64,000 nucleotides of DNA from an uncultured virus (IMG/VR IMGVR_UViG_3300010356_002077) (lineage: Duplodnaviria > Heunggongvirae > Uroviricota > Caudoviricetes): IMG/VR virus record IMGVR_UViG_3300010356_002077. One strand, 5' to 3'. The notes under the pieces are model-generated. The model searched no databases, was not told the DNA's origin, and saw only the letters and a list, made by a program, of their open reading frames with translations. Position numbers and translations under genes: made by a program. Positions 4,569 through 46,086 of the stretch are shown one piece after another (position 1 is the stretch's first letter; each line of letters starts with the position of its first letter).

Positions 4569-6839
4569 TTACCGGAGTTTTATCCCGCACCATTGTGGAC
4601 TTCCTCCGTACGAAACTTTTCGGAAACCTCTCTCAACGAGTGCGATGTCAAACAACCGACGTGAGAGAACTCTTTCTCCGGTCTCGGCGCACCAGAAACC
4701 ATAGGAGGCATAAAGATCCTTTCCGTTTGTGCGAGCTTTCGGATCTTGTACTTCACACTGCTCCTCGAGGAACTGTCCAATGACGTCTACCTGCTGTCGG
4801 TACGCTTTTGTCTCTTCCTCGACCTCGGTACGATCGAGTCCGAACTTCCTCCACAACTTGTGACCCTGCACCAACCACCGTAAAATGCCGTCTTTCTCTT
4901 CGAGGAGTTCCGGCAACAAATTCTGGTTCTGTTGCTCCACCGAGAACGAGACGGTAAAGGGAACGAGGCAAACCCTCCGCCAAAAGGCGTCGTCCGCGTA
5001 CCGCGTAAGTGGTTTGTGGTTTGTGACGAGAATGAACTTGAATTGGGGTCGGTACTCAAACGCTTCCTGGTAGAGCTTTCTTGCCGTAATCGTGTCACTT
5101 CCCGTAATCCTTTTTACCATCGCTTCATTCAAAACTCCGCGATTCGATTCGGTTCCGACAACGAGGCGACAACCTACAAGTCTCGCGAGTTCGTGCATCG
5201 ACTCCGAATTGTTGTCCTCCCCGAGAAAGGCTTCCGTGTTAACACTCTGGCAATATTCTCCCAAAATTTGGTGTACGACTTCGAGAAGGGTGGACTTTCC
5301 GTTTGCCCCTCTTCCGTAGAAGATGAAGAAGGTTTGCTCCCCCGTACCTCCACCAATTGCATATCCGAGTAGTCGTTGCACGAAATTGACCATCGCGGGT
5401 CGAACGAAGACCTCATTGAGGAATTTGACCCACTTTGGACACCTTGCATTCGGAAGAAAGTCTACTCGAGTTTGTTTTGTCAGGACGATTTCCGGAGTAT
5501 GCGGAAGGAGCGTACCTGTTGGCAGGTCGATAATCCCGTTTTTCGCATTCAAGTACTCAGGATTCCGATCGAGCATCCCGGGATAAACTTCGACCAGGGG
5601 TTTGACAAGCTCCAACGCACTGTGTAATCTCGCGTACGCGCGGGAGGCGAGGGACCACTTGAGCAACGTTTGTTGTGTTGAGGGATCCTTTTGTGCGAGA
5701 GCTTCCTCGCGTATGACGTCGGGAAGTTTAAGTGCTGCTCCGATCGCGGCCGTTCCCGCGGAGACGTAAACGCCGTTCTTGTACGAGAGAAATCCGAGAC
5801 CGCTGCAGTACCGAAGTGGTTCCGTGGTAATAGTCGCCAACCGTTTCGCGTTCGCGACGTCCGTAGTAGCTTCGAGAACGTCTACCATTTTAACGTGGGA
5901 TTCTTGATCGAGGAACGTCTCCTTCTCGAGATATTCCTGCGCTCCCCGAATCGTTAGGATGGCGTACGAGACACCCTTCTCGCGGGTCTTCGCAGAGATA
6001 CCCCACTGGGTATTACACATTACGGTGAGGAGCTGTCCGGGAGTGTACTTTCGCTTGAGCAACTCTACACACACTCGCCAATCTGCCTTGCTTCGGTCTC
6101 GAAAGTCCCCTTCTACGATAAGGTTTTTCAGTGAACGAGGAAGGGCTTGTAGAAACGCGTCAGGAAGACTTTCCGCCGTAATCTCCCCTTGAGGAGTTTC
6201 GACTTGAGTACTTTCCTGTCGGGGAAAGGCATCTAAACTGTGTCGGGTCTGAAACTGGGGTTTGAGTAGGAAGTAGCACCGTTTCGGGGGTAACACCTTC
6301 CAGTTTAGCGTTCCAGGAACTCGAAGAACACGAGCGAGGTCCGAACACGAATCTGCACTGAGTGCTTTCTCGAGTCCCTTTAATCGCATTTTCATCTCTT
6401 CGAGAGTCTCGGAGAAATGAGTGAGACACCAATACGCGTGAACTCCGTTACCACTACATACGATCGCACTGGGAGACGGAACGAACTTTTCTACGCGACT
6501 CACAAGGATGTCCAGGGGAAGGTCGTCTTTGGGGTCGATGTCTACCCACAAGACACTACTTCCAAGAGTCTGTTCCGCAAGACCCCGTCCTTGTTGCGGG
6601 ACCTCACGAAGTAGGGTCGTTCGACAAAAGAGGTCTTTTCCAAGAGTAGCTTCTTCAATCGCCTTTCGTTTCGCGACCTCGGCATCTCGAACGCGGAAGA
6701 AGAAATGTTGCCACGACGCAGCACTTTTTGAGGAGAGTGCAAGAACGGCATCCTGAGGTGCTTTGGAGGTAAGTAAGTCAATGAATAATTTGATTTCTTC
6801 CGAGTTGACCGTTGCGTAACTATTCTTCGATGAACGCAT
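4569..6839 (-). CDS. Primase-helicase: RepB-type primase plus P4/D5-family SF3 helicase
   Basis: WVDID, SGNGVHAYW and DLARVLRVPGTLN primase motifs; GRGANGKST Walker A; ITGSDTITARKLY. Confidence 0.9.
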   Translation of the reverse strand: MRSSKNSYATVNSEEIKLFIDLLTSKAPQDAVLALSSKSAASWQHFFFRVRDAEVAKRKAIEEATLGKDLFCRTTLLREVPQQGRGLAEQTLGSSVLWVDIDPKDDLPLDILVSRVEKFVPSPSAIVCSGNGVHAYWCLTHFSETLEEMKMRLKGLEKALSADSCSDLARVLRVPGTLNWKVLPPKRCYFLLKPQFQTRHSLDAFPRQESTQVETPQGEITAESLPDAFLQALPRSLKNLIVEGDFRDRSKADWRVCVELLKRKYTPGQLLTVMCNTQWGISAKTREKGVSYAILTIRGAQEYLEKETFLDQESHVKMVDVLEATTDVANAKRLATITTEPLRYCSGLGFLSYKNGVYVSAGTAAIGAALKLPDVIREEALAQKDPSTQQTLLKWSLASRAYARLHSALELVKPLVEVYPGMLDRNPEYLNAKNGIIDLPTGTLLPHTPEIVLTKQTRVDFLPNARCPKWVKFLNEVFVRPAMVNFVQRLLGYAIGGGTGEQTFFIFYGRGANGKSTLLEVVHQILGEYCQSVNTEAFLGEDNNSESMHELARLVGCRLVVGTESNRGVLNEAMVKRITGSDTITARKLYQEAFEYRPQFKFILVTNHKPLTRYADDAFWRRVCLVPFTVSFSVEQQNQNLLPELLEEKDGILRWLVQGHKLWRKFGLDRTEVEEETKAYRQQVDVIGQFLEEQCEVQDPKARTNGKDLYASYGFWCAETGERVLSRRLFDIALVERGFRKVSYGGSPQWCGIKLR

Positions 6840-9234
6840 CTAGCGACCCCCAAGACTTGCCAACCTCCGCGGACACCTTCCAAGAGAAAGGAGACTCACT
6901 ACGTCGCTTCACGAATGTCTGTATGCACGTCGCTATCTTTTGTACTTCCTTTTTGGTAATTCCATCCGGTACCTCTAAAAGCAAACTGTCGTGAACGAGA
7001 TTCACAACTCCGAGGTTTCCGGACATCTTTGAGAGAAGTTGTTTCGTTAGGTGAATTCCCGAGAGTAGTGTAAGATCGGACGCGGTAGATTGTATTGCAA
7101 AGTTTCGAGCTTCTCCACCGAGAGAAGAGAGTGTGAAGTTCGAGACTACCGGGAAGTGTCTCCGACGTCCGAAAGGTGTTTCTAACCACCCCTGCGTACT
7201 CGCGAGGATTGGTTGTTCTTTGAGGTACTTCCAAGCCTGAGGAAAGAGCTTTCCCCAATCTTCTATCAACCGCTGAGAAAATTGGATCGACACGGGTTTC
7301 TTCAACTCTCGAGTAAGCTGGCTCGCGATTGACGGGGCCTGCCGGTTGTAGAGAATCCCGAAGGTCACGGTTTTGGTTATTTCGCGTTGCTCTTTTGTGT
7401 AGTGGTTTCCGAAGATTTGGCGAGACACTTTGTCGTGCAAATCCTCTCCGTGTACAAAGAGTTGAGTGAGATTCTTGTCCCTACTGAGGAGGGCAAGAAC
7501 TCGAAGTTCCGTTTGTGAGTAGTCCATTTCGAGTAACAAGCGTCCCGGAGGAGAACTGAAGATATCCTTCACGACTTTTTCTCGCGGGACCGTTTGTACC
7601 GGAGGGTCCACCGCTACCAATCTTCCCGTTACCGTTCGGTGGAGCAAGAACTGTGGGTACACTCGGTGGGTCTCGGGATCGAGCAACGTGCGCATTTTCG
7701 TGACGTAGCTGGACATTATCTTCTTCGCTTTGCGTTGCTCGAGTAACATCCCGAGAAAGGTTTGGGACCGTTCTCCGATCGCACGTTCTTGGAGATCCTT
7801 CAACACCTCTTCACCGGTTTCTCGTTTCCGGGTGAGTTGCGGTAAGTGGAGAATGTCATAAAGGATGTGGGCGACTTGTGCGGGGGAGTTCGGATTGAAC
7901 GTCTCGAGACTAAACGCTTTTTGCATCTCGCGAGTTAACTCTTTCTCGCGTACTCCGATGGTCGCCTCGAGATTGTCCAAGTGTGCGGTGTCGATGTAGA
8001 TTCCTCTCCGACCGACGTCCGTCAAGAATTTACTCGCCGGAAGAAGAATCTCGTTGTACGCGGACCACTGTCCTCGAGATGCCTTTGCGAGGGGAAGGAG
8101 TACCCGAAAGAGGTTTCCAGTGGTTACTACGTCGCACGCAAGATATTTCTGGAGAAGTTCTCGCGGTACCAACGAGTACGAATCCGATTTGGGGTGCTTT
8201 AACGTCGCGTGAATGTCCTTTTCGTAGTTTCTCATTCCAAGAAACGTCGCTCCGAGGGATTTCAGATCGTGTGGAGGATGTTCCCAAAATGCATAGTGTA
8301 GGAGCATCGTATCCTGATCTACCCGAGCAGGAATTCCTGCGGCACCGAGAAAGCGAATGTCAAACTGACCGTTGTGCCAGATCCACTGTCGTTGCTTCGC
8401 GGTAAAGAACCGCTTGAGAAGTTTGTTGACGGTCTTGTCGTAAACCAATTCTTCCGGGAAGACGATTGGGGGAAACGGAACGTCGAGAGAGTAGATACCT
8501 AAACAGAGAATTCGATCCGTTTCACTCGAAAAACCACTGGTCTCGATATCCGCGGCGAGTAGTTCCGAGGTTTGGAGAGCTTTCAGTGCGAGACGGACGG
8601 CTTTACTATTTGAGATAACTCGGACGTCTGTGGTCGCGTAAGCTTCCACATCCGTAAAAAGTTGTTCGATCGGTTCTCGCTGAAGAAACCTCCTTACGAG
8701 TGCCGTACGCATTCGAAAGAGCAACCAACTCTCGGGAGAACGGAGTAGTTGTGCCGGGTGGGAGCACGGAACGAGTTTGAAGTGCCTTTCCTGCACCGAA
8801 AAATCTTCTATCGAGTGCAAGTCCGTAGAACTCTTTCCGGTTAGTGCTCTCGTTGCTACTCCTCCAACACACAAAATCAATTCGAGGTTTGGCATCGTAC
8901 GAATTTCGTTAAAAACGTTTTGTACACAGTGGGTCGCGACTTGTTCGAGCGCGTCGTCATTCTTCTCATTCGCCACTCCCAGATAACAGCAAACCGTATT
9001 TACGATCCGAGTATGTTTTTCCAGTTCGAATCCCGGAAATGCGTGTCGTAAGATTCGACCGGACTGACCAACGAACGGAGTGTGCTCTACCATTTCTTGC
9101 TTTCCGGGACTCTCTCCAACGATGAGTACTCGAGCATCGAGGTTACCCACTGCCGGAACCATCGGACTTCGATAAAACGGACATCCCGTACAAGTATCGG
9201 GTTTCCGAAGTCCCGAGGTCATTTTCCTCTCCAC
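6820..9234 (-). CDS. Family A DNA polymerase with N-terminal family-4 UDG-like domain and 3'-5' exonuclease
   Basis: UDG: CTGC, GESPG, PFVG, HPA. Exonuclease: DIETSG, HNGQFD, YLACD. Polymerase: DYSQTELR, KTVTFGILY, VHDS. Confidence 0.92.
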   Translation of the reverse strand: MERKMTSGLRKPDTCTGCPFYRSPMVPAVGNLDARVLIVGESPGKQEMVEHTPFVGQSGRILRHAFPGFELEKHTRIVNTVCCYLGVANEKNDDALEQVATHCVQNVFNEIRTMPNLELILCVGGVATRALTGKSSTDLHSIEDFSVQERHFKLVPCSHPAQLLRSPESWLLFRMRTALVRRFLQREPIEQLFTDVEAYATTDVRVISNSKAVRLALKALQTSELLAADIETSGFSSETDRILCLGIYSLDVPFPPIVFPEELVYDKTVNKLLKRFFTAKQRQWIWHNGQFDIRFLGAAGIPARVDQDTMLLHYAFWEHPPHDLKSLGATFLGMRNYEKDIHATLKHPKSDSYSLVPRELLQKYLACDVVTTGNLFRVLLPLAKASRGQWSAYNEILLPASKFLTDVGRRGIYIDTAHLDNLEATIGVREKELTREMQKAFSLETFNPNSPAQVAHILYDILHLPQLTRKRETGEEVLKDLQERAIGERSQTFLGMLLEQRKAKKIMSSYVTKMRTLLDPETHRVYPQFLLHRTVTGRLVAVDPPVQTVPREKVVKDIFSSPPGRLLLEMDYSQTELRVLALLSRDKNLTQLFVHGEDLHDKVSRQIFGNHYTKEQREITKTVTFGILYNRQAPSIASQLTRELKKPVSIQFSQRLIEDWGKLFPQAWKYLKEQPILASTQGWLETPFGRRRHFPVVSNFTLSSLGGEARNFAIQSTASDLTLLSGIHLTKQLLSKMSGNLGVVNLVHDSLLLEVPDGITKKEVQKIATCIQTFVKRRSESPFSWKVSAEVGKSWGSLDAFIEE

Positions 9235-9800
9235 ATACTCAACACCTCCATCTTCGCCCCACTACTCGTCCGAAAGATCCCCGAGACGTACGAAGTAATT
9301 GTGGAGGCACTACTCGATCGAGCCCCTCTACAACTCGCACAGGTATGTACCGCTTCCATTACCACGAAAACTCCCTGAGGTTGTAGAGCCTTCGAAATGG
9401 CCATTCCGATATCTCGAGTTAGGTACTCTTGAAGAGTAGGTGCTTGGTGGCTCGCAACCGTAACGAGTCGACTCAGTTTCGAGAGTCCCACCAACCGTTT
9501 GTTCGGAAGGTATGCGATTGCCGCGTGTCCGTAGAACGGAAAGAAGTGGTGGGCACACAAGGCGGAAAACTGGATGTCCCTTACCATGACAAATTCATCC
9601 AAGGGGGTGTCGCTTGTGGAAGTGAATTGTTTCCCTAACACTTCGACCAGCTGTGTATTGCGGTGCTCGCAGAACTCTGCCCATGCTCGGTAGATTCGTC
9701 CGGGAGTTTCTACTAGGGACTCGTCCGTGAGGTCAAGTCCGAGTTCCGTAAGAACGTCTTGAAGTTTTTCGATTGCTAGGGTCTTTGAACTTTTTTGCAT
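9219..9800 (-). CDS. folE: GTP cyclohydrolase I
   Basis: ETPGR, CAHHFFPF, GLSKL, LQE and HTC..RG motifs. Start revised to ATG 9800. Confidence 0.9.
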   Translation of the reverse strand: MQKSSKTLAIEKLQDVLTELGLDLTDESLVETPGRIYRAWAEFCEHRNTQLVEVLGKQFTSTSDTPLDEFVMVRDIQFSALCAHHFFPFYGHAAIAYLPNKRLVGLSKLSRLVTVASHQAPTLQEYLTRDIGMAISKALQPQGVFVVMEAVHTCASCRGARSSSASTITSYVSGIFRTSSGAKMEVLSMWRGK

Positions 9801-10528
9801 TCCTGTCTCCCTCGTAAGGCTTCTGGCCAGAGAAGCTTGTGAAGTTGTGGTAGAACTCGCACTTTGAATTGGTGAAGTACGGGTTCGGGATGTGTGAGGA
9901 CTTTGTCCACGAGTACGCGGTAGTCCTCCAACAAGGTTTCGGGTGTTCGCGTAACCGGTTGGAGAACTTTGAGGCACGACGGTCGGACCTTTTCGAATAC
10001 CTCGATCGCAAATTGAAGATCGATATCGTCCGCAACGACAATCTTGACGCAGTCGAACAGGGATCCGATTCCTCCAAACCGAAACGGATCGAGGTCTAAC
10101 CACTCTTGTAGGTACCCGAGACTCTGGTTGGCGGAGGGAGGTTTTGGACTGAGGGTAATCGAACCACTCAACGGTTCAAAGGCCTTCACCCATTCCGGTA
10201 CCGGGAGACTCGCTTGCGTTTCGAGGTGGATGTGCCAGTACCTAATTAACTCTGGAATAAGGGAGGTCATGTGATCCTTCCAAAGCACCGGATCACCTCC
10301 GGTTAGTACTAACAAGTCCGAGTAGGGTAGGTTCCTCAATTCTCGAACAATCTCTTCCACGGTGAGGAACCGGTAGTCTTGTCCTTCGACTGCGTACTTC
10401 GTGTCGCACCAAGTGCACGCATGGGGACAACCCCAAGTACGAAGGAAGAGAGCGGGAGCCCCAGCTAGGGCTCCCTCTCCTTGAATCGTCGGACCAAAGA
10501 TTTCCGAGACTGCAATTCTCGGTTCCAT
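9776..10528 (-). CDS. queE: 7-carboxy-7-deazaguanine synthase (radical SAM)
   Basis: EIFGPTIQGEG, CPHACTWCDT (CxxxCxxC), LTGGDP, SPK, PQLHK. Confidence 0.9.
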   Translation of the reverse strand: MEPRIAVSEIFGPTIQGEGALAGAPALFLRTWGCPHACTWCDTKYAVEGQDYRFLTVEEIVRELRNLPYSDLLVLTGGDPVLWKDHMTSLIPELIRYWHIHLETQASLPVPEWVKAFEPLSGSITLSPKPPSANQSLGYLQEWLDLDPFRFGGIGSLFDCVKIVVADDIDLQFAIEVFEKVRPSCLKVLQPVTRTPETLLEDYRVLVDKVLTHPEPVLHQFKVRVLPQLHKLLWPEALRGRQECKKVQRP

Positions 10529-13596: not shown

Positions 13597-14718
13597 TCAC
13601 CTCCACCCACGAGGAGTACCAAAAAGCATTTCCGATATTGCTTCACAATTTAGGTACACTCGTTTTACCGCTTCCGGAGTAAAGTCTCGATTCCGCAGGT
13701 ATCCTCTTGGTCGGTGGGGATGTTCTCCGTTTCGGTAGTGATCCATTTCCCAACGTTTACCTCCAGAACCTAGAGCGATATGTAGAGGTGCCGCAGAGTC
13801 AAGACTTGTTAGGTGTAAGAATAGATCGTTTTGAAAAGTCTGGAACGACAACACATCCTCGGCAAGGCACGGAGACAAACCGAACAAGTGAACGTCCGGA
13901 AAGTACCGCAACTCTTTCATGACGTCCTTCAAGAGGTACAAGAATGCCAACCGTCCGAATATTTTCGTGTCCTCTTCCGTAGGATGAAAAGGTACCGCGA
14001 TACGCGAGACCTCGGCTCCTTTGTACGCCGCGAGGGCTGTATAGACGTGGGCCCAGTTGGTAGTCGGACAAACCACACAAGTGAGGACACACCCAGGGTG
14101 CGTTTGTCGATACTTTATCATACGCGGGTGGTCGAGGGCTCGTAAAGTTGGTTCGATAGTTGCGAGACAGTCTCCATATACGTCGGGTAGGACGAGATAA
14201 TCCGGAGACGTCCTCGTTGCCGCATCCAAAAGTAGTTCGAGATTCGCCGCAGTAAGATCTTCGTAGACGTTGTTGTCGAGGACCGTCTCGAAATTGTACC
14301 GGTGAAGAGTCTCACAAAGTTGGGTCATTTCTTTGGGTTGCTCTCGAACCTGCCGCTCGAGATAGAGAATCCCACCAAAAGGATATCCGGGAGGACCATC
14401 TTTGAGGGACCGCCACACCTGTAGCATTTTTCGAATCAACTTCTCGGGTGCGACTGCAAGGAACTTCGGTCGGGAAGATAGGTTCGGTATTGGAGAGTCC
14501 GGGAGGTCGAAACTCAATTCTAACCAGGCCAGGTAATCTTTTAGTTTTGCGAGGTTTTTCTTTGGATCGTCTTTGAGGAAGAGTCGGTCGAGATACTTTC
14601 GTACGTCTCCAAGCATCGAACCCTGAAAGATTGTCTTTCCGTACGCCTGGTAGAACTCTTCTAGAGTTTCTCGCGATCCCGGACGTTGGTAGTACTGTCC
14701 TCGGGGAACCTTCAGCAT
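13597..14718 (-). CDS. DUF3310-like domain fused to a TGT-fold DpdA-like base-exchange protein
   Basis: Start revised to ATG 14718. N-terminus YY..ETLE..GDVRKYLDR..K..NLAKLKDYL. C-terminal part has VLDNNVYE, LVLPDVYGD, HLFGL and SLDSAAP. Lies among que genes. Confidence 0.6.
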   Translation of the reverse strand: MLKVPRGQYYQRPGSRETLEEFYQAYGKTIFQGSMLGDVRKYLDRLFLKDDPKKNLAKLKDYLAWLELSFDLPDSPIPNLSSRPKFLAVAPEKLIRKMLQVWRSLKDGPPGYPFGGILYLERQVREQPKEMTQLCETLHRYNFETVLDNNVYEDLTAANLELLLDAATRTSPDYLVLPDVYGDCLATIEPTLRALDHPRMIKYRQTHPGCVLTCVVCPTTNWAHVYTALAAYKGAEVSRIAVPFHPTEEDTKIFGRLAFLYLLKDVMKELRYFPDVHLFGLSPCLAEDVLSFQTFQNDLFLHLTSLDSAAPLHIALGSGGKRWEMDHYRNGEHPHRPRGYLRNRDFTPEAVKRVYLNCEAISEMLFGTPRGWR

Positions 14719-14954
14719 TTTTCGGTTCCTGCCTTTCCCCGGAAGATTCCGAGAAACTTCTGGAGGAACCCACCCTTTTTCTGGTCCCGTTTCCTCGTCG
14801 AAATCTTCTTGAGGGACGTCTGAAGACGAGTTGTGAAGCCCGACTTCTCGGACTCGCCTTTCATCTTCCGGTACTCCTTTCCACTCCGTCGGGACACCGG
14901 TAATCCGTAATACCGGAGTTCGTACATCCTCACTGCTTTTCCGTTCGCGTTCAC
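14712..14954 (-). CDS. Small basic hypothetical protein
   Basis: GTG start overlaps the upstream stop; its own stop overlaps the next ATG. Confidence 0.45.
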   Translation of the reverse strand: MNANGKAVRMYELRYYGLPVSRRSGKEYRKMKGESEKSGFTTRLQTSLKKISTRKRDQKKGGFLQKFLGIFRGKAGTEKC

Positions 14955-15214
14955 GATCCACCCCCTATCTCGGTGAACTCCCCGCACCAATCGTCATCTG
15001 CTACCGCGGGTCTCGTATCAACCGCACGTAACTCCGGTTTTCTTGTGAGCGGGTTAACCGCCGGTAGCAACTGAATCGTTTTCGGGTACCGATAACACAC
15101 CCGAACCTTCGTTCCGGTACCCGCGTCTGAAGTAAGTACTCCAAAAAGGCACCGTTTACACCGAAAGGAATTTCGGAGAACCTTATCAATCGTTTCAACG
15201 TTAGATCCTGACAC
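14951..15214 (-). CDS. Hypothetical Cys-containing protein
   Basis: CKRC...CYRYP...DWCGE pattern; SD present; in operon. Confidence 0.5.
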   Translation of the reverse strand: MSGSNVETIDKVLRNSFRCKRCLFGVLTSDAGTGTKVRVCYRYPKTIQLLPAVNPLTRKPELRAVDTRPAVADDDWCGEFTEIGGGS

Positions 15215-16700
15215 AACCTACCTCCTTTTTGAGTTCATTCACAATATCGCTCCACTGCTTCTTCAACTGTACCAACTCGAGGATGCGTTCATCCAATTTA
15301 CCCCGGTGAACAAAGTACCGCACCAAAACCGGTTTTGGAGAAACCTTTCCGGAGGGTCGAACAACCCTCGCGAGTGCTTGTGCGACCGTATTGTAGTTCC
15401 AATCCAACTGCCACACTAGAACCAACTCGGCACCGGCAAGAGAAAAACCTTCCGCCATTCCGATTGAACACAACGCGACTCGGACCTCGGGATCCTCGCG
15501 AAACTGCTTGGAGAACTTCGTCACTTCCTTCGCGGAGGATTGTCCCGTAATAACGACGTGCGGAATGGGTTCGGAATCTCCGAACATCAAACGGCGAGAG
15601 AGATCTTGCAACGGTTGGAGGAACGGAGAAAACACCACCACCTTGCACTGTGTACTGTGTTCTCGAACTTGTTCTGCAATACAATCTATCGGTTCGGTCA
15701 ACCCAACACAGGTAGGGAGGATCGCTCGTGGGCACATTAGGAAGATCCGGAGTTTGGTGAGCATCGCAACTACGTTTGGAAGTGCGAGAGTCTCCTGGTC
15801 AAGGTCCAGTTTCAGTTCCACTTGTAATTTCTTGTAGACCTTCTCAAGTTCGGGTGCGAGTTCGAGATGAACGATTTGAGTTTCCACGGTAGGTAGCTCC
15901 TTTGCAATCTCCGTTCGTCTCCGCGACAACATGTACTGACTCAACCACTCGGTAAACCGTTTGTAGTGGTTCGAAGTCGGGTCTGGTGGAGCAATTTCGG
16001 TACCGAATGGAGTAATGACGATTCCGAAGAACTCCGCCACGCGCTTCCAGAAACTTCTGTTTCCGCGAGGATCGAGAATCTGAACCAAAGGAATGACGTG
16101 ATGGGGATGTCCGACAATTGGAGTACCCGAAAGCATAAACACAAACGGGAGTCCGTTGGATCTCGGAGTAGCGAGTGCTTTGACGATTCGGTACGTCTGG
16201 GTATTCCGACCGCGAACTCGATGTGCCTCGTCCAAAACGATCGCATCAAAGTAAACCTTCTCAAGTTCCTTTAGAAGGGGGTGGTAGGTCGCAAGTAAAA
16301 TGAATCCCGAATGCTTTCGATCTTGTACCCGGGCAACAATTTTGTCTCGTTTCTTTCGCTCGGTCGAGAACGAAATTACCTCAAGAGGAATACCCCATTT
16401 CTTTATCTCGTCCTCCCAAACTCCGATAGCACTTTTTGGTACCACCGCTAGGACTCGAGATAGTTTCAATAGTCGAATTGCCTCGAGAGTTTGGACCGTC
16501 TTTCCGAGACCCATTTCATCGGCAAGAAACGCTCGGTGGTGCTTGATCAAAAACGACACCCCTTCAACCTGGTAGGGTCGTAACTTCTTGTTGACATATC
16601 GTAGGGGACAACCCGGAGTGTGAATTGCCCACTGATAAGAAGTTTGAAATTCCTTTCCACATTCCGGACACGTTAACATTTCATTCCTCGGGTGTCGCAA
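15201..16700 (-). CDS. SNF2-family helicase with N-terminal Zn finger
   Basis: LRPYQ, LADEMGLGKT, LDEAH, LSGTP, QALARVVR. Confidence 0.88.
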   Translation of the reverse strand: MRHPRNEMLTCPECGKEFQTSYQWAIHTPGCPLRYVNKKLRPYQVEGVSFLIKHHRAFLADEMGLGKTVQTLEAIRLLKLSRVLAVVPKSAIGVWEDEIKKWGIPLEVISFSTERKKRDKIVARVQDRKHSGFILLATYHPLLKELEKVYFDAIVLDEAHRVRGRNTQTYRIVKALATPRSNGLPFVFMLSGTPIVGHPHHVIPLVQILDPRGNRSFWKRVAEFFGIVITPFGTEIAPPDPTSNHYKRFTEWLSQYMLSRRRTEIAKELPTVETQIVHLELAPELEKVYKKLQVELKLDLDQETLALPNVVAMLTKLRIFLMCPRAILPTCVGLTEPIDCIAEQVREHSTQCKVVVFSPFLQPLQDLSRRLMFGDSEPIPHVVITGQSSAKEVTKFSKQFREDPEVRVALCSIGMAEGFSLAGAELVLVWQLDWNYNTVAQALARVVRPSGKVSPKPVLVRYFVHRGKLDERILELVQLKKQWSDIVNELKKEVGCVRI

Positions 16701-17139
16701 AAGGAAGAGTAGGTTGATCGTCCGAAACCGATTTTCCGGGGGACTCTAGAACGTCGGGGTACCGAATCGGTTGGTACGTCGCACTCGTCTTCGCACCTTC
16801 CTTAACCGTTACCCGAGAAATCCGAACTCTCGGAGTGTGTCCCTGGACAACCAACTTCTTTCGGATTCCCTCGAAAAAGTAATTCGCGAGATTTTCCGCG
16901 GTCGGATTGAACGGGAGCAACCGATTGAGGTCGTTGTGGTCGAGAACGAGAATCTCTTTTGTCAGTTCTTTGAACTCGTGATAGTCCAACACCATCCCGG
17001 CGTCCGTTAACTCGTGCGCCGCGAGTTCAACGTCAATTTCGTAGTTGTGTCCGTGGTAGTACGTACACGGGTGGTTGGGGGAAAGTAACCTTAATCTGTG
17101 AGCACAACTTATCTCGAACTTCTTCGTTATGTAGTACAT
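16681..17139 (-). CDS. queD: 6-carboxytetrahydropterin synthase
   Basis: AHRL, CxxxHGHNY, LDH, PTAENLA. Confidence 0.9.
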   Translation of the reverse strand: MYYITKKFEISCAHRLRLLSPNHPCTYYHGHNYEIDVELAAHELTDAGMVLDYHEFKELTKEILVLDHNDLNRLLPFNPTAENLANYFFEGIRKKLVVQGHTPRVRISRVTVKEGAKTSATYQPIRYPDVLESPGKSVSDDQPTLPFATPEE

Positions 17140-17341: not shown

Positions 17342-17815
17342 CTACCTCCACCGATAACTTTGTACGTACGTTCCGACACTTCCGATTCGATTGTCCTGTT
17401 CGATCTCTTGAAGTTGAACTTCGATTCCGGTAGGACGCCTTTTCTTGGAAGCACCGCAACCTCGACAGGTCAAATCTCGATCCAAATTTGTTCTACCGCA
17501 GTACTCACACCGGGTTCCGTCGTCAATCGCCTTGGTTATCCTCCCGGTAATGTCCCGGGCGAGGCACTTAGGACACTCCGCACCTTTAGGATAGCTCATT
17601 CCGTGTTCCGGGCACGTTCGCCAAGATAACATTGTTTTCTCCACAATCATTTCGTTTGCGTGTACTACCGTACAACCTAATTCGTTTTCTCGTTTCAACT
17701 GCTTCATTTCTTCCATTCTAGAACCCGAAACAACTTCTCCGGAAAGGAGTTTCACCACGAATATCAACCCAACCGCTACCGCACATAGAAGGAGGATGTC
17801 AACGACGTCGGACAT
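17342..17815 (-). CDS. Membrane-anchored Zn-ribbon protein
   Basis: Start revised to ATG 17815. N-terminal TM helix; CPEH, CPKC, CEYC and CRGC pairs. Confidence 0.5.
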   Translation of the reverse strand: MSDVVDILLLCAVAVGLIFVVKLLSGEVVSGSRMEEMKQLKRENELGCTVVHANEMIVEKTMLSWRTCPEHGMSYPKGAECPKCLARDITGRITKAIDDGTRCEYCGRTNLDRDLTCRGCGASKKRRPTGIEVQLQEIEQDNRIGSVGTYVQSYRWR

Positions 17816-18413
17816 TTTCCCTCCGATTTTGTGACGGGGTGCCGGTCCCCGTCGGGTAAGAGGTAGGCGCCCTACTGAGGAGAGCAGGAGCGATTGCGCC
17901 GGCATCGCAATTCTTGGGTACTCCGTACGGGTTGAAAATAAGTACGTCAACCGTCATTACACCCACACGAAGCATCCCTAATTTGTTTGCTAAAACTTTA
18001 CTCAAATCGAATTCTCGTCCCGAAATGTAGGGTCCTCGGTCTGTTATCCGTCCGAGAGCCCACGAATCTGCGTCACTCCAACATAAAACTACCGTACCAA
18101 AAGGTAGGGTTTTGTGAGCAATATACGGAGCGGTCTGTCGGAAGGGTTTCCCGTTTGCCATTGTCCGCCCCTCGAAAAAGTCAGCGTAGTAAGAACAAGT
18201 TGCTCTGCGAACCGCGGTACAATTGTCTATCCACTCTAGTTGAGTCCGAACTTCCTCCATCAAGTGATTGACCGTCCGAAGTGTGGTATTGTACTCTTGC
18301 TGTGCCTCCCTTATCTCACAAAGTATCCGTTCAGTTTGAAATGGTAGCAACAAACCAACCACGAGCACTAGAAAGTAGAGTACCATAACCCCGCAGAGCA
18401 ACTTGAATTTCAT
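17799..18413 (-). CDS. RlpA-like (DPBB) lytic transglycosylase with N-terminal TM
   Basis: SYY..GRTMANG, AHKTLPFGT, ITDRGPY..GREFDLS. Confidence 0.85.
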   Translation of the reverse strand: MKFKLLCGVMVLYFLVLVVGLLLPFQTERILCEIREAQQEYNTTLRTVNHLMEEVRTQLEWIDNCTAVRRATCSYYADFFEGRTMANGKPFRQTAPYIAHKTLPFGTVVLCWSDADSWALGRITDRGPYISGREFDLSKVLANKLGMLRVGVMTVDVLIFNPYGVPKNCDAGAIAPALLSRAPTSYPTGTGTPSQNRRENVRRR

Positions 18414-18416
18414 CTT

Positions 18417-19067
18417 CTACCCCTCGTACTCTGTTTTGTCCTGCAGTCCCGCGAGAGCGATCGCCTTCTTACGGTTTCGACAGGATTCACAGACTCCACA
18501 ATGGAGTTTTTCGCTTCGGTAACACGACCAGGTGTTGAAGATGATGTCCCCAACTAACGCGTGGGCGCGCTTAAGATTCTCCGCTTTGGAGAATCCACAA
18601 CGTGCCGGACTGTCGATCGTCAGCGGATTGTCGGGATGTCCAGTGTTGAGGGTTTTCTGGAGTTCCGCGACAAATCCGTTTCGACAATCCGGGTAACCCG
18701 CGGCATCGTCCGCATGAGCACCGAAGATGATCTTTCCGGCACCGATCGACTTTGCGTACGCTGCGGCGATTGTGAGCATTACCATATTCCGGAGAGGGAC
18801 CACAACCGTCGGGACGTAATTGTCCTCGATGTCGACCGCTTCATCCGTTAACTGCGATCCCGGCCAAAGTTCTTGCATGAACGACATGTCGATGATTTGA
18901 ACGTCCTGCACGAAAGGAAATCCGGCAACGACGTTTTCGATGACACTGAGTTCTTTGACTCCTTTCTGCCCGTAGTCAAAAGCGAGAACGTGACATTCGT
19001 CGAGATCGTGTTGCGCGAGGAAACACACACTATCCATTCCCCCGCTTACTACCGCAACCACTTTCAT
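18417..19067 (-). CDS. queC: 7-cyano-7-deazaguanine synthase
   Basis: SGGMDS, FDYGQ, VPLRN, YPDCR, SCY, CGVCESC. Start revised to ATG 19067. Confidence 0.92.
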   Translation of the reverse strand: MKVVAVVSGGMDSVCFLAQHDLDECHVLAFDYGQKGVKELSVIENVVAGFPFVQDVQIIDMSFMQELWPGSQLTDEAVDIEDNYVPTVVVPLRNMVMLTIAAAYAKSIGAGKIIFGAHADDAAGYPDCRNGFVAELQKTLNTGHPDNPLTIDSPARCGFSKAENLKRAHALVGDIIFNTWSCYRSEKLHCGVCESCRNRKKAIALAGLQDKTEYEG

Positions 19068-19068
19068 T

Positions 19069-19335
19069 TTAATACGTCCTTTCTGGGGGGATATCCCTTC
19101 CCGCGTTTTTTGTTCGAGTGGAGACCTTTGCCGGAGACACGAGAGTGAGGCGGTCCTCATCGAACCAAGTCCCGATTGCTTGTTTCGTCGGTTCCTTTTT
19201 TGATACCTCTGGTACGACGAGAACCTGAAGGCAACCGGTTGAGTATTTGCAATACCCCACAACCTTGCCTTTGAAGTTCGTCACCACATCCTTCACTTCG
19301 TCGTACCAGCTGAACTTTCCCGAAATTGAAATCAC
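19069..19335 (-). CDS. Hypothetical SH3-like protein
   Basis: GTG start after AGGAGG; VKDVVTNFKG...TGC...WFDE pattern. Confidence 0.5.
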   Translation of the reverse strand: MISISGKFSWYDEVKDVVTNFKGKVVGYCKYSTGCLQVLVVPEVSKKEPTKQAIGTWFDEDRLTLVSPAKVSTRTKNAGRDIPPERTY

Positions 19336-43269: not shown

Positions 43270-45123
43270 ATGCTTCGAAAATGTTGGATTTGGATTTTCG
43301 TCTTGCTCCTGACCCTACCGGTATGGGCAACGGACTACGTTACAATTACGTACAATGTAAAGCTCCCTGCGGGAACTCCTTCTTCGAGTATTCGCGCGTC
43401 CGCACGACTAACGTACGATGCGTTTCGGAATCCCGCACACATTGTGTATGCTCAAGACGGAACTTATGACGCAACTCTCGGAACCTTTACTTGGACCCTA
43501 CCAAAGGGTTGCTACTTTCAGTTCGTTTGTAAAGCGACGAATTTGGATGACGAGTATCAGATTCCGACGGTGAGTTCTCTTCTGAACGACCTCATTCCTG
43601 CCGAACCTCCACCCACTCCGTCCTGGGCTTCTCTCCTCTGGTCCTGTTCTCAACAGCCCGAGTGCGACATCGTATCCGATTACGATGTAGATGTGGTCGA
43701 CGGACGATTCTCGGGAACTGTCGCGGCAGCCGGAACGGTCACGGGCTCGAACCTCTCCGGCTCCAGCTCCGGGACGAACACGGGGGACCAGGACCTATCC
43801 GGCCTCCTCCCATATACGGGGGCGACGGGTAATGTTGACTTGGGGACGCATAACCTCACCACCACAGGCAAAGGAACATTCGGACAGTTTAAATTGACTG
43901 GTGGAATTACAGGATACTTATTGATGTCAGGTGTGGATGGTCTTGCTCTGTGGTCCTCTCCAAACAGCCACAAACATTCTATTATCCAAAACTATATTGG
44001 TGGGGGAAGTGATGTCGGAAGTGTTGAGATTATGACTGATGGGGGTGCATATTATAGCATCCCGGATGGTTCGATATATCTCGACGGTATATTCCCGTTT
44101 TTGTCCCTCACCACAACTCGCGGCATAACCAGTGGAGGGCACGCAGTTAAATTTTACGATGGTGCCGACACCCACACCTATTATTTTGACCTCCCGCCGT
44201 TTACTGATCCTTCCGTTGTTGTTACGTTCCCGCCAGTCAGCGGGTCGCTATGGGCCTCTGGGAACGATGGCACGGGTTCGGGCTTGGACGCTGACACGCT
44301 TGATGGAGACCATGGTTCAGCGTTCCTGAAGGCAGAGGTTGATGGAGTTATCGGCAACGAAGTGACGGACGCCGCCGATACAACCCTCACCAGAACGGGA
44401 AGCGGAACAAGCGGAGACCCGTGGAAGCTGAAACTTGCACTCGCCAACGCAAACACTTGGGAAGTGAACCAGACAGCACCGTATTGGCTATCAAGCGTTC
44501 AATATGACCCAAACAATCCCAGGCCCTACGGCTGGCCTCTGACCGCCGCAAACTCAAACGACCTTGAGTTTAACGGGGCGAACCCGATGACGGACACGGC
44601 AGACCTTGATAGTTCGACGACGGAGATTCCGGGGTGGATAACTCTCGACACGGCAGGATTGGCGAAGCAGGGCCTGGCATACAAAACACTTGCGAGTGCC
44701 TTTGCTACCGACAGCGTGATTGACTGCCGGGCGCACATATCTTGTAATGCTTGGACAAACGGCTCAACCGTCGTGCTTGCGTTCCTGTATGACAATGCAG
44801 GCTCGATGGACGGGTGGTATGTCGGACTAAAAGGCAACAACGGCTATTGGCAGAGGGGTTGGGGAACCGTTACGAATTATGTTCTGTCTGCCCCGACAGC
44901 CGCAACCCTCTACGATTACAAGCCTTATATCGGCGTATACCGCTACGCCACAGGCGACCTTTATTTTACAGATAGTGAGGACGGAATCACTTGGGGCACA
45001 TACGCCAGATTGACGACAGGTGCGAATAAGGCGTTCACGGTGTTTGGGGTTGGCGCGGATCTGTCAGCAAATTCCACACCAGAGGTGAATACCGTTGCAG
45101 TAGATTGGGTTCGGTTCAAATAA
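43270..45123 (+). CDS. Tail-fibre-like protein with signal peptide (copy 2)
   Basis: MLRKCWIWIFVLLLTLPVWA|TD N-terminus. Central region identical to 627..2549; N- and C-termini homologous but diverged. Confidence 0.65.
   Translation: MLRKCWIWIFVLLLTLPVWATDYVTITYNVKLPAGTPSSSIRASARLTYDAFRNPAHIVYAQDGTYDATLGTFTWTLPKGCYFQFVCKATNLDDEYQIPTVSSLLNDLIPAEPPPTPSWASLLWSCSQQPECDIVSDYDVDVVDGRFSGTVAAAGTVTGSNLSGSSSGTNTGDQDLSGLLPYTGATGNVDLGTHNLTTTGKGTFGQFKLTGGITGYLLMSGVDGLALWSSPNSHKHSIIQNYIGGGSDVGSVEIMTDGGAYYSIPDGSIYLDGIFPFLSLTTTRGITSGGHAVKFYDGADTHTYYFDLPPFTDPSVVVTFPPVSGSLWASGNDGTGSGLDADTLDGDHGSAFLKAEVDGVIGNEVTDAADTTLTRTGSGTSGDPWKLKLALANANTWEVNQTAPYWLSSVQYDPNNPRPYGWPLTAANSNDLEFNGANPMTDTADLDSSTTEIPGWITLDTAGLAKQGLAYKTLASAFATDSVIDCRAHISCNAWTNGSTVVLAFLYDNAGSMDGWYVGLKGNNGYWQRGWGTVTNYVLSAPTAATLYDYKPYIGVYRYATGDLYFTDSEDGITWGTYARLTTGANKAFTVFGVGADLSANSTPEVNTVAVDWVRFK
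43654..44443 (+). repeat. ~790-bp direct repeat, copy 2
   Basis: Matches 1008-1797. Confidence 0.95.
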
Positions 45124-45687: not shown

Positions 45688-46086
45688 ATGGCCAGACTCG
45701 CGCTTACGGCCCTTATTTGGCTTGTCAGCGCTCCGCTGGGCGCAGGTTGGAGGCCCATGCCGGTCAGGGCTTTGCCGCAGATCGAAAAGGCGAGGGAGAG
45801 CGTCACGGTCACGGCAAGCTGGTACGGCCCCGGGTTCTTCGGCAAAACGACGGCAAGCGGCGAGGTTTTCCTGCCGCACCTTCCCACCTGCGCCCACAAG
45901 GAACTCCCATTCGGGACAAGGGTAAGATTGACCAACCCCGAGAACAACCGGTCGTTGGTTTTAAGAGTGAACGACCGCGGCCCCTTCATCCCCGGCCGCG
46001 ATATTGACTTGAACGAATTCCCCGCGTGGATCCTCGGATACCACAAAAAAGGCGTTCACAAGCTTCAGCTGGAGGTGCTGGAATGA
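45688..46086 (+). CDS. RlpA-like lytic transglycosylase
   Basis: ASWYG..GKTTASGE, AHKELPFGT, VNDRGPF..GRDIDL. Confidence 0.88.
   Translation: MARLALTALIWLVSAPLGAGWRPMPVRALPQIEKARESVTVTASWYGPGFFGKTTASGEVFLPHLPTCAHKELPFGTRVRLTNPENNRSLVLRVNDRGPFIPGRDIDLNEFPAWILGYHKKGVHKLQLEVLE

Follow-up and report, generated by a model that had tools for sequence, protein, structure and literature searches.

Results

A fused gene in the replication module of a deazaguanine phage

The window, the whole 64,000-nucleotide stretch of DNA from an uncultured virus of the Caudoviricetes that was analysed here (IMG/VR record IMGVR_UViG_3300010356_002077), encodes on its minus strand a protein in which an N-terminal DUF3310 domain is joined by a short linker to a C-terminal (beta/alpha)8 barrel of the tRNA-guanine transglycosylase (TGT) fold (Table 1). 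The fused gene lies in the replication module of a phage of about 42 kb, together with genes for a D5-type primase-helicase, a UDG-fused family A DNA polymerase (UDG-PolA), FolE, QueE, an SSB-like protein, an AAA_24 ATPase, a PD-(D/E)XK nuclease, a SNF2 helicase, QueD and QueC; the terminase, portal and tail genes come after this module, on the other strand. We conclude with high confidence that the fused gene combines a DpdA3-type barrel with DUF3310 and serves the insertion of deazaguanine. This identity and this role in the pathway are well supported: what the two domains are, which acids are conserved, which genes lie around the fused gene and that the fusion recurs were all observed and are described below.

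Residue numbers in the text count from the ATG at position 14718, which gives a protein of 373 residues (P0001). Upstream of this ATG the frame is open to a GTG at 14961, and a start there would give 454 residues (P0002); public gene calls use both, the 373-residue form on three contigs and the 454-residue form on two. The 81 additional residues have no family match. The GTG overlaps the stop codon of an upstream open reading frame (ORF) of 87 residues, and the ATG at 14718 is overlapped by the terminal TGA of a rival ORF of 92 residues (14712-14990, minus strand).

Table 1. Positions in the window of the fused gene, its parts, the preQ0 genes and the phage polymerase
Feature	Position	Strand	Description
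Fused gene, ATG form (P0001), 373 aa	13597..14718	-	DUF3310 domain, linker and DpdA3-type barrel; stop codon 13597-13599
Possible 81-aa N-terminal extension	14719..14961	-	Present if the GTG start is used; charged, low complexity
DUF3310 domain, aa 5-69	14512..14706	-	Pfam match, hhalign to T7 gp1.7, helical hairpin model
Interdomain linker, aa 70-82	14473..14511	-	Predicted disordered; predicted local distance difference test (pLDDT) below 50 for residues 66-81
DpdA3-type TGT-fold (beta/alpha)8 barrel, aa 83-367	13618..14472	-	Predicted catalytic acids D148, D179 and D307
UDG-fused family A DNA polymerase	6820..9234	-	DNA_pol_A 2e-68, UDG 1e-16, exonuclease 2e-8
FolE (GTP cyclohydrolase I), first preQ0 step	9219..10103	-	PF01227, E 2e-51, aa 112-290
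QueE-like radical SAM enzyme (7-carboxy-7-deazaguanine synthase)	9776..10528	-	phrog_2076, E 1e-30; Radical_SAM, E 3e-12
QueD (6-carboxytetrahydropterin synthase)	16681..17139	-	Pfam PTPS, E 7e-29
QueC (7-cyano-7-deazaguanine synthase), makes preQ0	18417..19262	-	Pfam QueC, E 4e-50

The N-terminal domain corresponds to the core of T7 gp1.7

The original prediction, made by eye from the sequence alone, read the first residues of the protein as a degenerate DUF3310 domain and the remainder as a divergent DpdA/TGT-fold enzyme, and profile and structure comparisons of both domains bear out these assignments. At the N-terminus, DUF3310 (PF11753) matches residues 14-63 of the 373-residue form (E 3.6e-5, 24.2 bits, with a Pfam cut-off of 24), the 454-residue form scores 23.7 bits, slightly below that cut-off, and weak matches to this stretch also come from four PHROG families that bear the label 'nucleotide kinase' (E 1e-3 to 0.19). 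When the first 85 residues of the window protein were aligned with nine DUF3310 ORFs from related viral records (n=10), the alignment matched residues 122-184 of T7 gp1.7 (hhalign 96.4%, E 1.3e-9). Across the ten sequences Y10, R45, K49 and K58 are invariant, and E17 and Y42 almost so.

The fold model of the domain, built from 10 sequences, is a helical hairpin with helices at residues 18-48 and 52-69 and a pLDDT above 85 for residues 21-70. No solved structure matched this model at E <=0.001, the top rows being generic helical hairpins; among predicted viral structures the best matches, none of which reaches E 0.001 (best E 0.016), include proteins named DUF3310, 'nucleotide kinase' and 'SaV-like', at template modelling (TM) scores of about 0.6-0.68. 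From its sequence we take the N-terminal domain to be a slightly degenerate DUF3310, equivalent to the conserved core of gp1.7 and not to the whole kinase.

What does the likeness to gp1.7 imply? According to PMC11897194, T7 gp1.7 phosphorylates dGMP and dTMP. The window protein shares with gp1.7 the DUF3310 core and keeps its conserved Tyr, Glu, Lys, Arg and Lys positions, whereas the first 121 residues of gp1.7 have no counterpart in the window protein, in which the domain is instead fused to another enzyme. Since DUF3310 covers only the C-terminal third of gp1.7, a kinase activity of the 65-residue domain is an annotation transfer.

The C-terminal barrel belongs to a divergent DpdA3 family

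The barrel has no Pfam, NCBIfam or direct PDB sequence match, and searches with the 373-residue protein by phmmer against PDB and by tblastn against phages gave nothing significant; a word-index search returned only the protein itself. A full HMMER search of 1.8 billion representatives recovered eight weak true relatives of 249-371 residues; a ninth match, P0004, was rejected as a false match to repetitive sequence. One of the eight relatives, P0008, likewise starts with DUF3310, and of the 8000 candidates scored in a search seeded with P0008, at least 596 reached E <=0.001, nearly all of them 240-310 residues long and without a Pfam domain. Members of the family have about 260 residues and are mostly acidic (median isoelectric point (pI) 5.7; pI above 7.5 in 7 of 86).

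The TGT-like motifs named in the original prediction are all present in the translation (LDN at 147-149, LPDVYGD at 177-183, HLFG at 277-280 and SLDS at 305-308), and the invariant columns of an 86-sequence family alignment, D148, E153, D179, R256, H277, G280, D307 and P311, coincide with the LDN, LPDV, HLFG and SLDS motifs. All eight of these residues are kept in the window protein, and D148, D179 and D307 would be the equivalents of TGT Asp102, Asp156 and Asp280.

An AlphaFold model of the barrel, built from 9 sequences, contains eight strand-helix units between residues 85 and 366 (mean pLDDT 71, barrel mostly 77-95). Foldseek ranks 1-10 are all TGT (E 7e-6, TM 0.45), followed by aldolases and other barrels at similar E-values. 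In a VIA structural comparison the 50 entries shown are all TGT or DpdA, nearly all of them TGT, with Z scores of 15.9-16.3, and the highest identity, 19%, is to the bacterial DpdA 7ui4 (Z 16.1, root-mean-square deviation 3.5, 236 residues). A Z score of at least 8 is reached by 980 of 1000 chains, mostly other barrels, and the fold alone therefore does not single out TGT; the sequence evidence does.

With the 86-member family profile, 7ui4 is matched in the PDB at E 0.002 and nothing else falls below 0.1, the alignment being displayed only for the HLLG and DS..P region. The same profile matches, over its full length, the DpdA3 proteins of Flavobacterium phage immuto_2-6A (gp206) and Campylobacter phage CP220 (gp056), which together with that of phiST are the founding members of DpdA3, by hhalign at 99.6% (E 4.7e-24, 241 columns), and the window protein alone matches DpdA3 at 68% (E 4.8e-5, 185 columns). 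Searches by tblastn tie the family to Brevundimonas and Bacillus phage proteins, and the Bacillus proteins are matched by both the family and DpdA3; for one such relative, from Bacillus phage BSP7, Supplementary Data S1 of PMC10516641 gives the assignment DpdA3. Thus the barrel is, as judged from these comparisons, a divergent DpdA3, a more exact placement than the DpdA/TGT fold originally proposed.

The Pfam models of the superfamily do not detect this family. PF01702 (TGT) matches neither the 454-residue form at E <=10 nor nine family members at E <=1; PF23859 (Pfam DpdA) matches neither the 454-residue form at E <=10 nor any of five related viral records at E <=1, and does not match the founding DpdA3 proteins either, at E <=0.01. 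TGT carries a C-terminal zinc-binding CxCxxC...H subdomain; no such motif occurs after D307 in the translation, and the 86-sequence alignment has no conserved cysteines there.

A complete preQ0 pathway surrounds the fused gene

FolE, QueE, QueD and QueC, all encoded within 5 kb of the fused gene on the same strand, constitute a complete preQ0 pathway. The longest FolE ORF overlaps the QueE ORF by 328 bases and its Pfam domain starts only at residue 112, so the true FolE start is probably well downstream of the listed GTG. No QueF or other tailoring enzyme was detected in the phage, and the expected base is therefore preQ0. Even at relaxed thresholds no other transglycosylase was found in the phage, which leaves the fused gene as the only base-exchange candidate found, and no separate nucleotide kinase was detected.

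More than one phage may be represented in the window. A second, Mu-like phage (45148-63998), of higher G+C (0.55-0.61), begins 25 bases past the last ORF of the deazaguanine phage and encodes Gam, GemA, Mu gp27, a large terminase, a Mu portal, Mu F, a virion morphogenesis protein and a tail terminator. Each of the two phages has a protein with a DPBB_1 (lytic transglycosylase-like) domain, at 17799-18413 on the minus strand and 45688-46086 on the plus strand. A near-exact repeat of about 800 bp (1006-1830 and 43652-44476, offset 42646 bases), with 95-100% identity in every 100-base block from 1001 to 1800, lies in two long ORFs that have no Pfam match and come after the tail genes (627-2549 and 43270-45123); it may represent shared tail-fibre modules of two related phages.

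The fusion is real, rare and part of a wider association with kinases

How widely is the fusion distributed? The fused ORF of the window occurs on at least five public contigs from three sources (Logan, ENA and JGI/IMG). One more public contig, of 15 kb, has a frameshifted copy split into 271 and 174 residues (P0138 and P0139); the frameshift falls within the barrel, immediately ahead of the LPDV motif, and thus away from the boundary between the domains, and this copy may be a sequencing error or a broken copy. In a second fusion lineage, found on two contigs, P0008 and its full-length form P0141 carry a canonical DUF3310 at the same end of a barrel that is about 27-29% identical to that of the window protein. 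The survey of distribution suggested with the original prediction thus shows the fusion to be real but rare: among the best 120 P0008 relatives listed, PF11753 is found only in P0008 itself.

A five-sequence sub-alignment retrieved 63 related viral loci; a locus scan with P0001 or P0008 alone found none, and the fused gene is absent from the nearest record (G001). After removal of 6 duplicates and of 11 loci at which a simple ORF picker had missed the gene, 46 remained, with flanks defined as three ORFs on each side and a Pfam scan covering 255 of the 257 flanking ORFs. Within these flanks the DpdA3-type gene has at least one of FolE, QueE, QueD and QueC at 38 of the 46 loci and a downstream family A polymerase at 36, of which 35 are UDG-fused. 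A DUF3310 gene is directly adjacent to the DpdA3-type gene at three of the 46 loci, upstream in L062 and L064, where the two genes are separate overlapping ORFs, and downstream in L066. At one further locus (L067) a weak DUF3310 match lies downstream (E 0.023), and at another (L065) a weak P-loop thymidylate-kinase-like ORF lies directly upstream. In L064 the order between 6782 and 7938 is a Vut_1/YhhQ-type transporter, MazG, a 72-residue DUF3310 protein, the DpdA3-type gene and a PolA without UDG, MazG being two ORFs upstream of the DpdA3-type gene; the Vut_1/YhhQ family includes queuosine-precursor transporters.

Comparable neighbours occur beside more distant members. The canonical DpdA3 gene of CP220 lies between an upstream HD-plus-P-loop kinase gene and an AAA_28 kinase gene, and that of immuto has an AAA_28 kinase three genes off and a phosphoribosyltransferase nearby. 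In Bacillus phage BSTP12 a weak P-loop, dNK-like ORF lies directly upstream of the DpdA3-type gene, and in Brevundimonas phage MaInes a deoxynucleoside monophosphate (dNMP) kinase is encoded 6 kb from it. DpdA3-type genes are hence tied to at least two unrelated types of kinase-associated protein and are twice fused to one of them, and a deoxynucleoside triphosphate (dNTP) pyrophosphatase or HD hydrolase sometimes accompanies them. A search of 41 whole related records found DUF3310 in 9, AAA_28 in 3 and DNMK in 3; therefore a kinase is not universal, genome-wide absence being scored here by these three families.

In a neighbour-joining tree (Biopython; 57 sequences, 252 columns), which is crude and whose topology is indicative only, the kinase-linked members occupy separate deep branches between canonical DpdA3 and a large crown group without an adjacent kinase, a sign that they do not form one tight clade.

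Could the small crown-group ORFs that separate FolE from the DpdA3-type gene be hidden DUF3310 domains? This reading was rejected: 17 such ORFs, when aligned, are not alike, and among the small upstream ORFs only those of L062 and L064 contain DUF3310. In L019, L028, L029, L031, L033 and L039 an acidic ORF of 66-84 residues separates FolE or QueE from the DpdA3-type gene. The crown-group ORFs of this size match no Pfam family and do not detectably resemble DUF3310; at the C-terminus several of them have a helix that is loosely similar.

Discussion

Relation to known systems

The original prediction presented the fusion as a candidate for a novel system, a claim that did not survive comparison: the fused gene belongs to the published DpdA3 system, as a variant of it, and does not make up a wholly new one. 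Like the published DpdA3 proteins, it has a homologous barrel of about 260 residues with the motif set LDNS, PD, QG, HLLG and DS/T..P, sits among FolE, QueD, QueE and QueC, and is missed by the Pfam TGT and Pfam DpdA models. It differs from them in that it is very divergent, lacking the QG motif and R244; in that its phage is of about 42 kb and encodes UDG-PolA, in contrast to the large myoviruses of the published examples; and in that it carries the N-terminal DUF3310. A term search of the main text and one supplement file of PMC10516641 returned no mention of 'kinase' or 'DUF3310', and a DUF3310-DpdA3 architecture is absent from the titles and abstract openings of the listed papers that mention DUF3310.

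Bacterial DpdA is the best solved relative by profile, with the HLLG and DS..P motifs aligned, and among the best by structure; however, 7ui4 has 413-436 residues as compared with about 285 for the window barrel, which moreover lacks the zinc-binding cysteine motif and a match to PF23859. TGT (PF01702) shares the (beta/alpha)8 fold and fills the ten best Foldseek ranks, but at only about 10-13% identity, and the window barrel, without the zinc subdomain or a PF01702 match, is encoded in a context of DNA modification and not of tRNA.

A proposal for base replacement before replication

We propose that the two domains form a functional unit which acts on deoxyguanosine nucleotides ahead of replication, a proposal that we regard as close to evenly balanced, slightly on the side of doubt. 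FolE, QueD, QueE and QueC would make preQ0 out of GTP. The barrel would then put preQ0 in the place of guanine on a free nucleotide of deoxyguanosine, dGMP being the simplest case, by a chemistry like that of TGT in which D307 would be the aspartate nucleophile that attacks C1', aided by D148 and D179. The DUF3310 domain would bind the product monophosphate and phosphorylate it, as T7 gp1.7 does with dGMP, the nucleoside diphosphate kinase of the host would make the triphosphate, and the UDG-PolA of the phage would incorporate it. Here the substrate (nucleotide or DNA), the kinase activity of DUF3310 and all later steps are what we infer. Of the original prediction, the idea that the base is exchanged on the nucleotide and the product phosphorylated for PolA gains comparative backing from the kinase and DUF3310 links, and it stays a proposal.

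Pre-replicative replacement of a base is established in other phages: T4 makes hydroxymethyl-dCMP and encodes a dNMP kinase and a dCTPase, and S-2L has PurZ together with MazZ and DatZ. The logic proposed here is the same, in that a monophosphate is modified, a phage kinase acts on it and the phage polymerase incorporates the product, whereas an enzyme that removes the canonical dNTP, as in those pathways, was not found in the window phage. We know of no precedent for base exchange on free nucleotides by a TGT-fold enzyme.

The kinase links, the double fusion and the company of pyrophosphatases or HD hydrolases are the genomic signature of pre-replicative base replacement. That a different, unrelated kinase-associated domain appears in the same role strengthens, without proving, an argument from non-homologous replacement. 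A small-molecule substrate is also in keeping, if weakly, with the short length and mostly acidic character of the family members and with the absent zinc subdomain. According to PMC10516641, all G is replaced in DpdA3 phages, DpdA3 could not be made to work in the authors' Escherichia coli model, and a nucleoside form of 7-amido-7-deazaguanine (ADG) is found in infected cells; these three observations sit awkwardly with a post-replicative view. For Campylobacter phages, a route through modified dGTP was suggested in 2019 (PMC6884629), and in the literature covered this remark is the only mention of a nucleotide-level or pre-replicative deazaguanine route, with no later paper settling it. We further suggest, more tentatively still, that the fusion is a Rosetta stone: DpdA3-type enzymes may be the first members of the TGT superfamily to act on free deoxynucleotides, and the genomes of their phages may be built pre-replicatively.

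A number of observations weigh against action before replication. All characterised TGT-fold enzymes known to us (TGT, archaeal TGT and bacterial DpdA) act on a polynucleotide, which is consistent with the titles of the matched structure entries. Post-replicative insertion is the published view for all DpdA subfamilies, as set out in the text of the 2023 study (PMC10516641). The DUF3310 of the window protein is degenerate and at the edge of the Pfam cut-off, some of the structural matches of its model carry the label 'SaV-like' and not kinase, and in T7 gp1.7 the domain makes up only residues 122-184 of 196; BLASTP of the whole protein against gp1.7 was not significant (best E 0.31, on unrelated segments), and a helical hairpin of 65 residues may not be a kinase by itself. 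At the level of genomes, five of the 13 records that are at least 90% complete lack DUF3310, AAA_28 and DNMK, in the large crown group a kinase-associated ORF occurs in the three-ORF flanks of the DpdA3-type gene at 0 of the 41 surveyed loci (all but L062, L064, L065, L066 and L067), and the tree that puts kinase-linked members near the base is without support values. Within the window phage, searches revealed no enzyme that would remove dGTP, whether MazG, HD or another, even when thresholds were relaxed. Finally, the window protein alone among the 86 sequences has the substitutions A121E, H122R, S150N, G155L, Q217C, G218P and R244F, in columns otherwise conserved in 88-98% of them, and the pocket of its barrel may accordingly differ or be impaired.

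Alternative explanations

Could the barrel act on DNA after all? As a post-replicative DNA transglycosylase it would exchange G for preQ0 in the DNA of the phage, with DUF3310 in an accessory role: as an oligomerisation module, as a tether to DNA or the replisome, or as an independent module for the nucleotide pool or for early functions, whose fusion came about because it was encoded next to the barrel. We consider this explanation well within the range of the plausible, if short of probable. It agrees with the published proposal for DpdA3 (PMC10516641) and with the nature of the closest solved relative, 7ui4, a DNA preQ0 insertase. Most members of the family stand alone, PF11753 occurring only in P0008 among the best 120 listed, and the family A polymerase downstream at 36 of 46 loci fits action at or behind the fork. 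The near-complete relatives without DUF3310, AAA_28 or DNMK (5 of 13) point the same way, as does the fold of DUF3310, a plain hairpin of helices to which no solved structure, nucleotide-binding or other, is significantly similar. Nevertheless, this explanation does not readily account for the existence of two fusion lineages, for DUF3310 as a neighbouring gene or for P-loop kinases of unrelated type in that same place; the proteins are small, mostly acidic and without a zinc subdomain; and complete replacement of G together with the failure of DpdA3 in E. coli (as given in PMC10516641) is awkward for a stand-alone DNA enzyme.

It is improbable that the window protein is a diverged or impaired enzyme which acts on another substrate (a different deazapurine, RNA or tRNA) or does not catalyse exchange at all. 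The seven residues that it alone has among the 86 sequences (E121, R122, N150, L155, C217, P218 and F244), its identity of only 19-27% to any other member of the family and the public contig with the frameshifted copy of 271 and 174 residues would all be expected of such an enzyme, but the protein keeps all eight invariant residues, the three acids included, its ORF is intact on five contigs, and it is the sole transglycosylase candidate beside an intact four-gene preQ0 pathway. That assembly or sequencing error merged separate DUF3310 and DpdA3-type genes is most improbable: a one-base error could join overlapping ORFs such as those of L062 and L064, but the same continuous ORF recurs on five contigs from Logan, ENA and JGI/IMG, a second fused lineage occurs on two, and a 13-residue in-frame linker separates the domains.

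Implications

The neighbouring polymerase deserves separate mention. A 2026 paper in Nucleic Acids Research (PMC13697223) ascribes UDG-PolA fusions to phages with T-modified genomes. At 35 of the 46 related loci UDG-PolA is found downstream of the DpdA3-type gene, no more than three ORFs away. Since deazaguanine appears in PMC13697223 only in the reference list, a tight link of UDG-PolA to deazaguanine clusters may be unreported.

Two routes compete as accounts of how phages replace every G with a 7-deazaguanine: the modified-dGTP idea of 2019 (PMC6884629) and the post-replicative view favoured in 2023, after the discovery of DpdA3 (PMC10516641). The natural DpdA3-DUF3310 fusion offers a single polypeptide with which both routes can be tested in vitro, and a comparative argument is added by other DpdA3 lineages, in which P-loop kinases of unrelated type take this position. 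DUF3310 is a very common phage domain; to our knowledge gp1.7, a dGMP/dTMP kinase, is the only DUF3310 protein with a known activity, and DpdA3 has never been reconstituted. If the nucleotide route is correct, it would overturn the published post-replicative model of DpdA3, establish DUF3310 as a minimal nucleotide-kinase module, add a new class of reaction to the TGT fold and make deazaguanine dNTPs accessible from a compact enzymatic source. Even if the route proves wrong, DUF3310 gains from the fusion a first partner and context.

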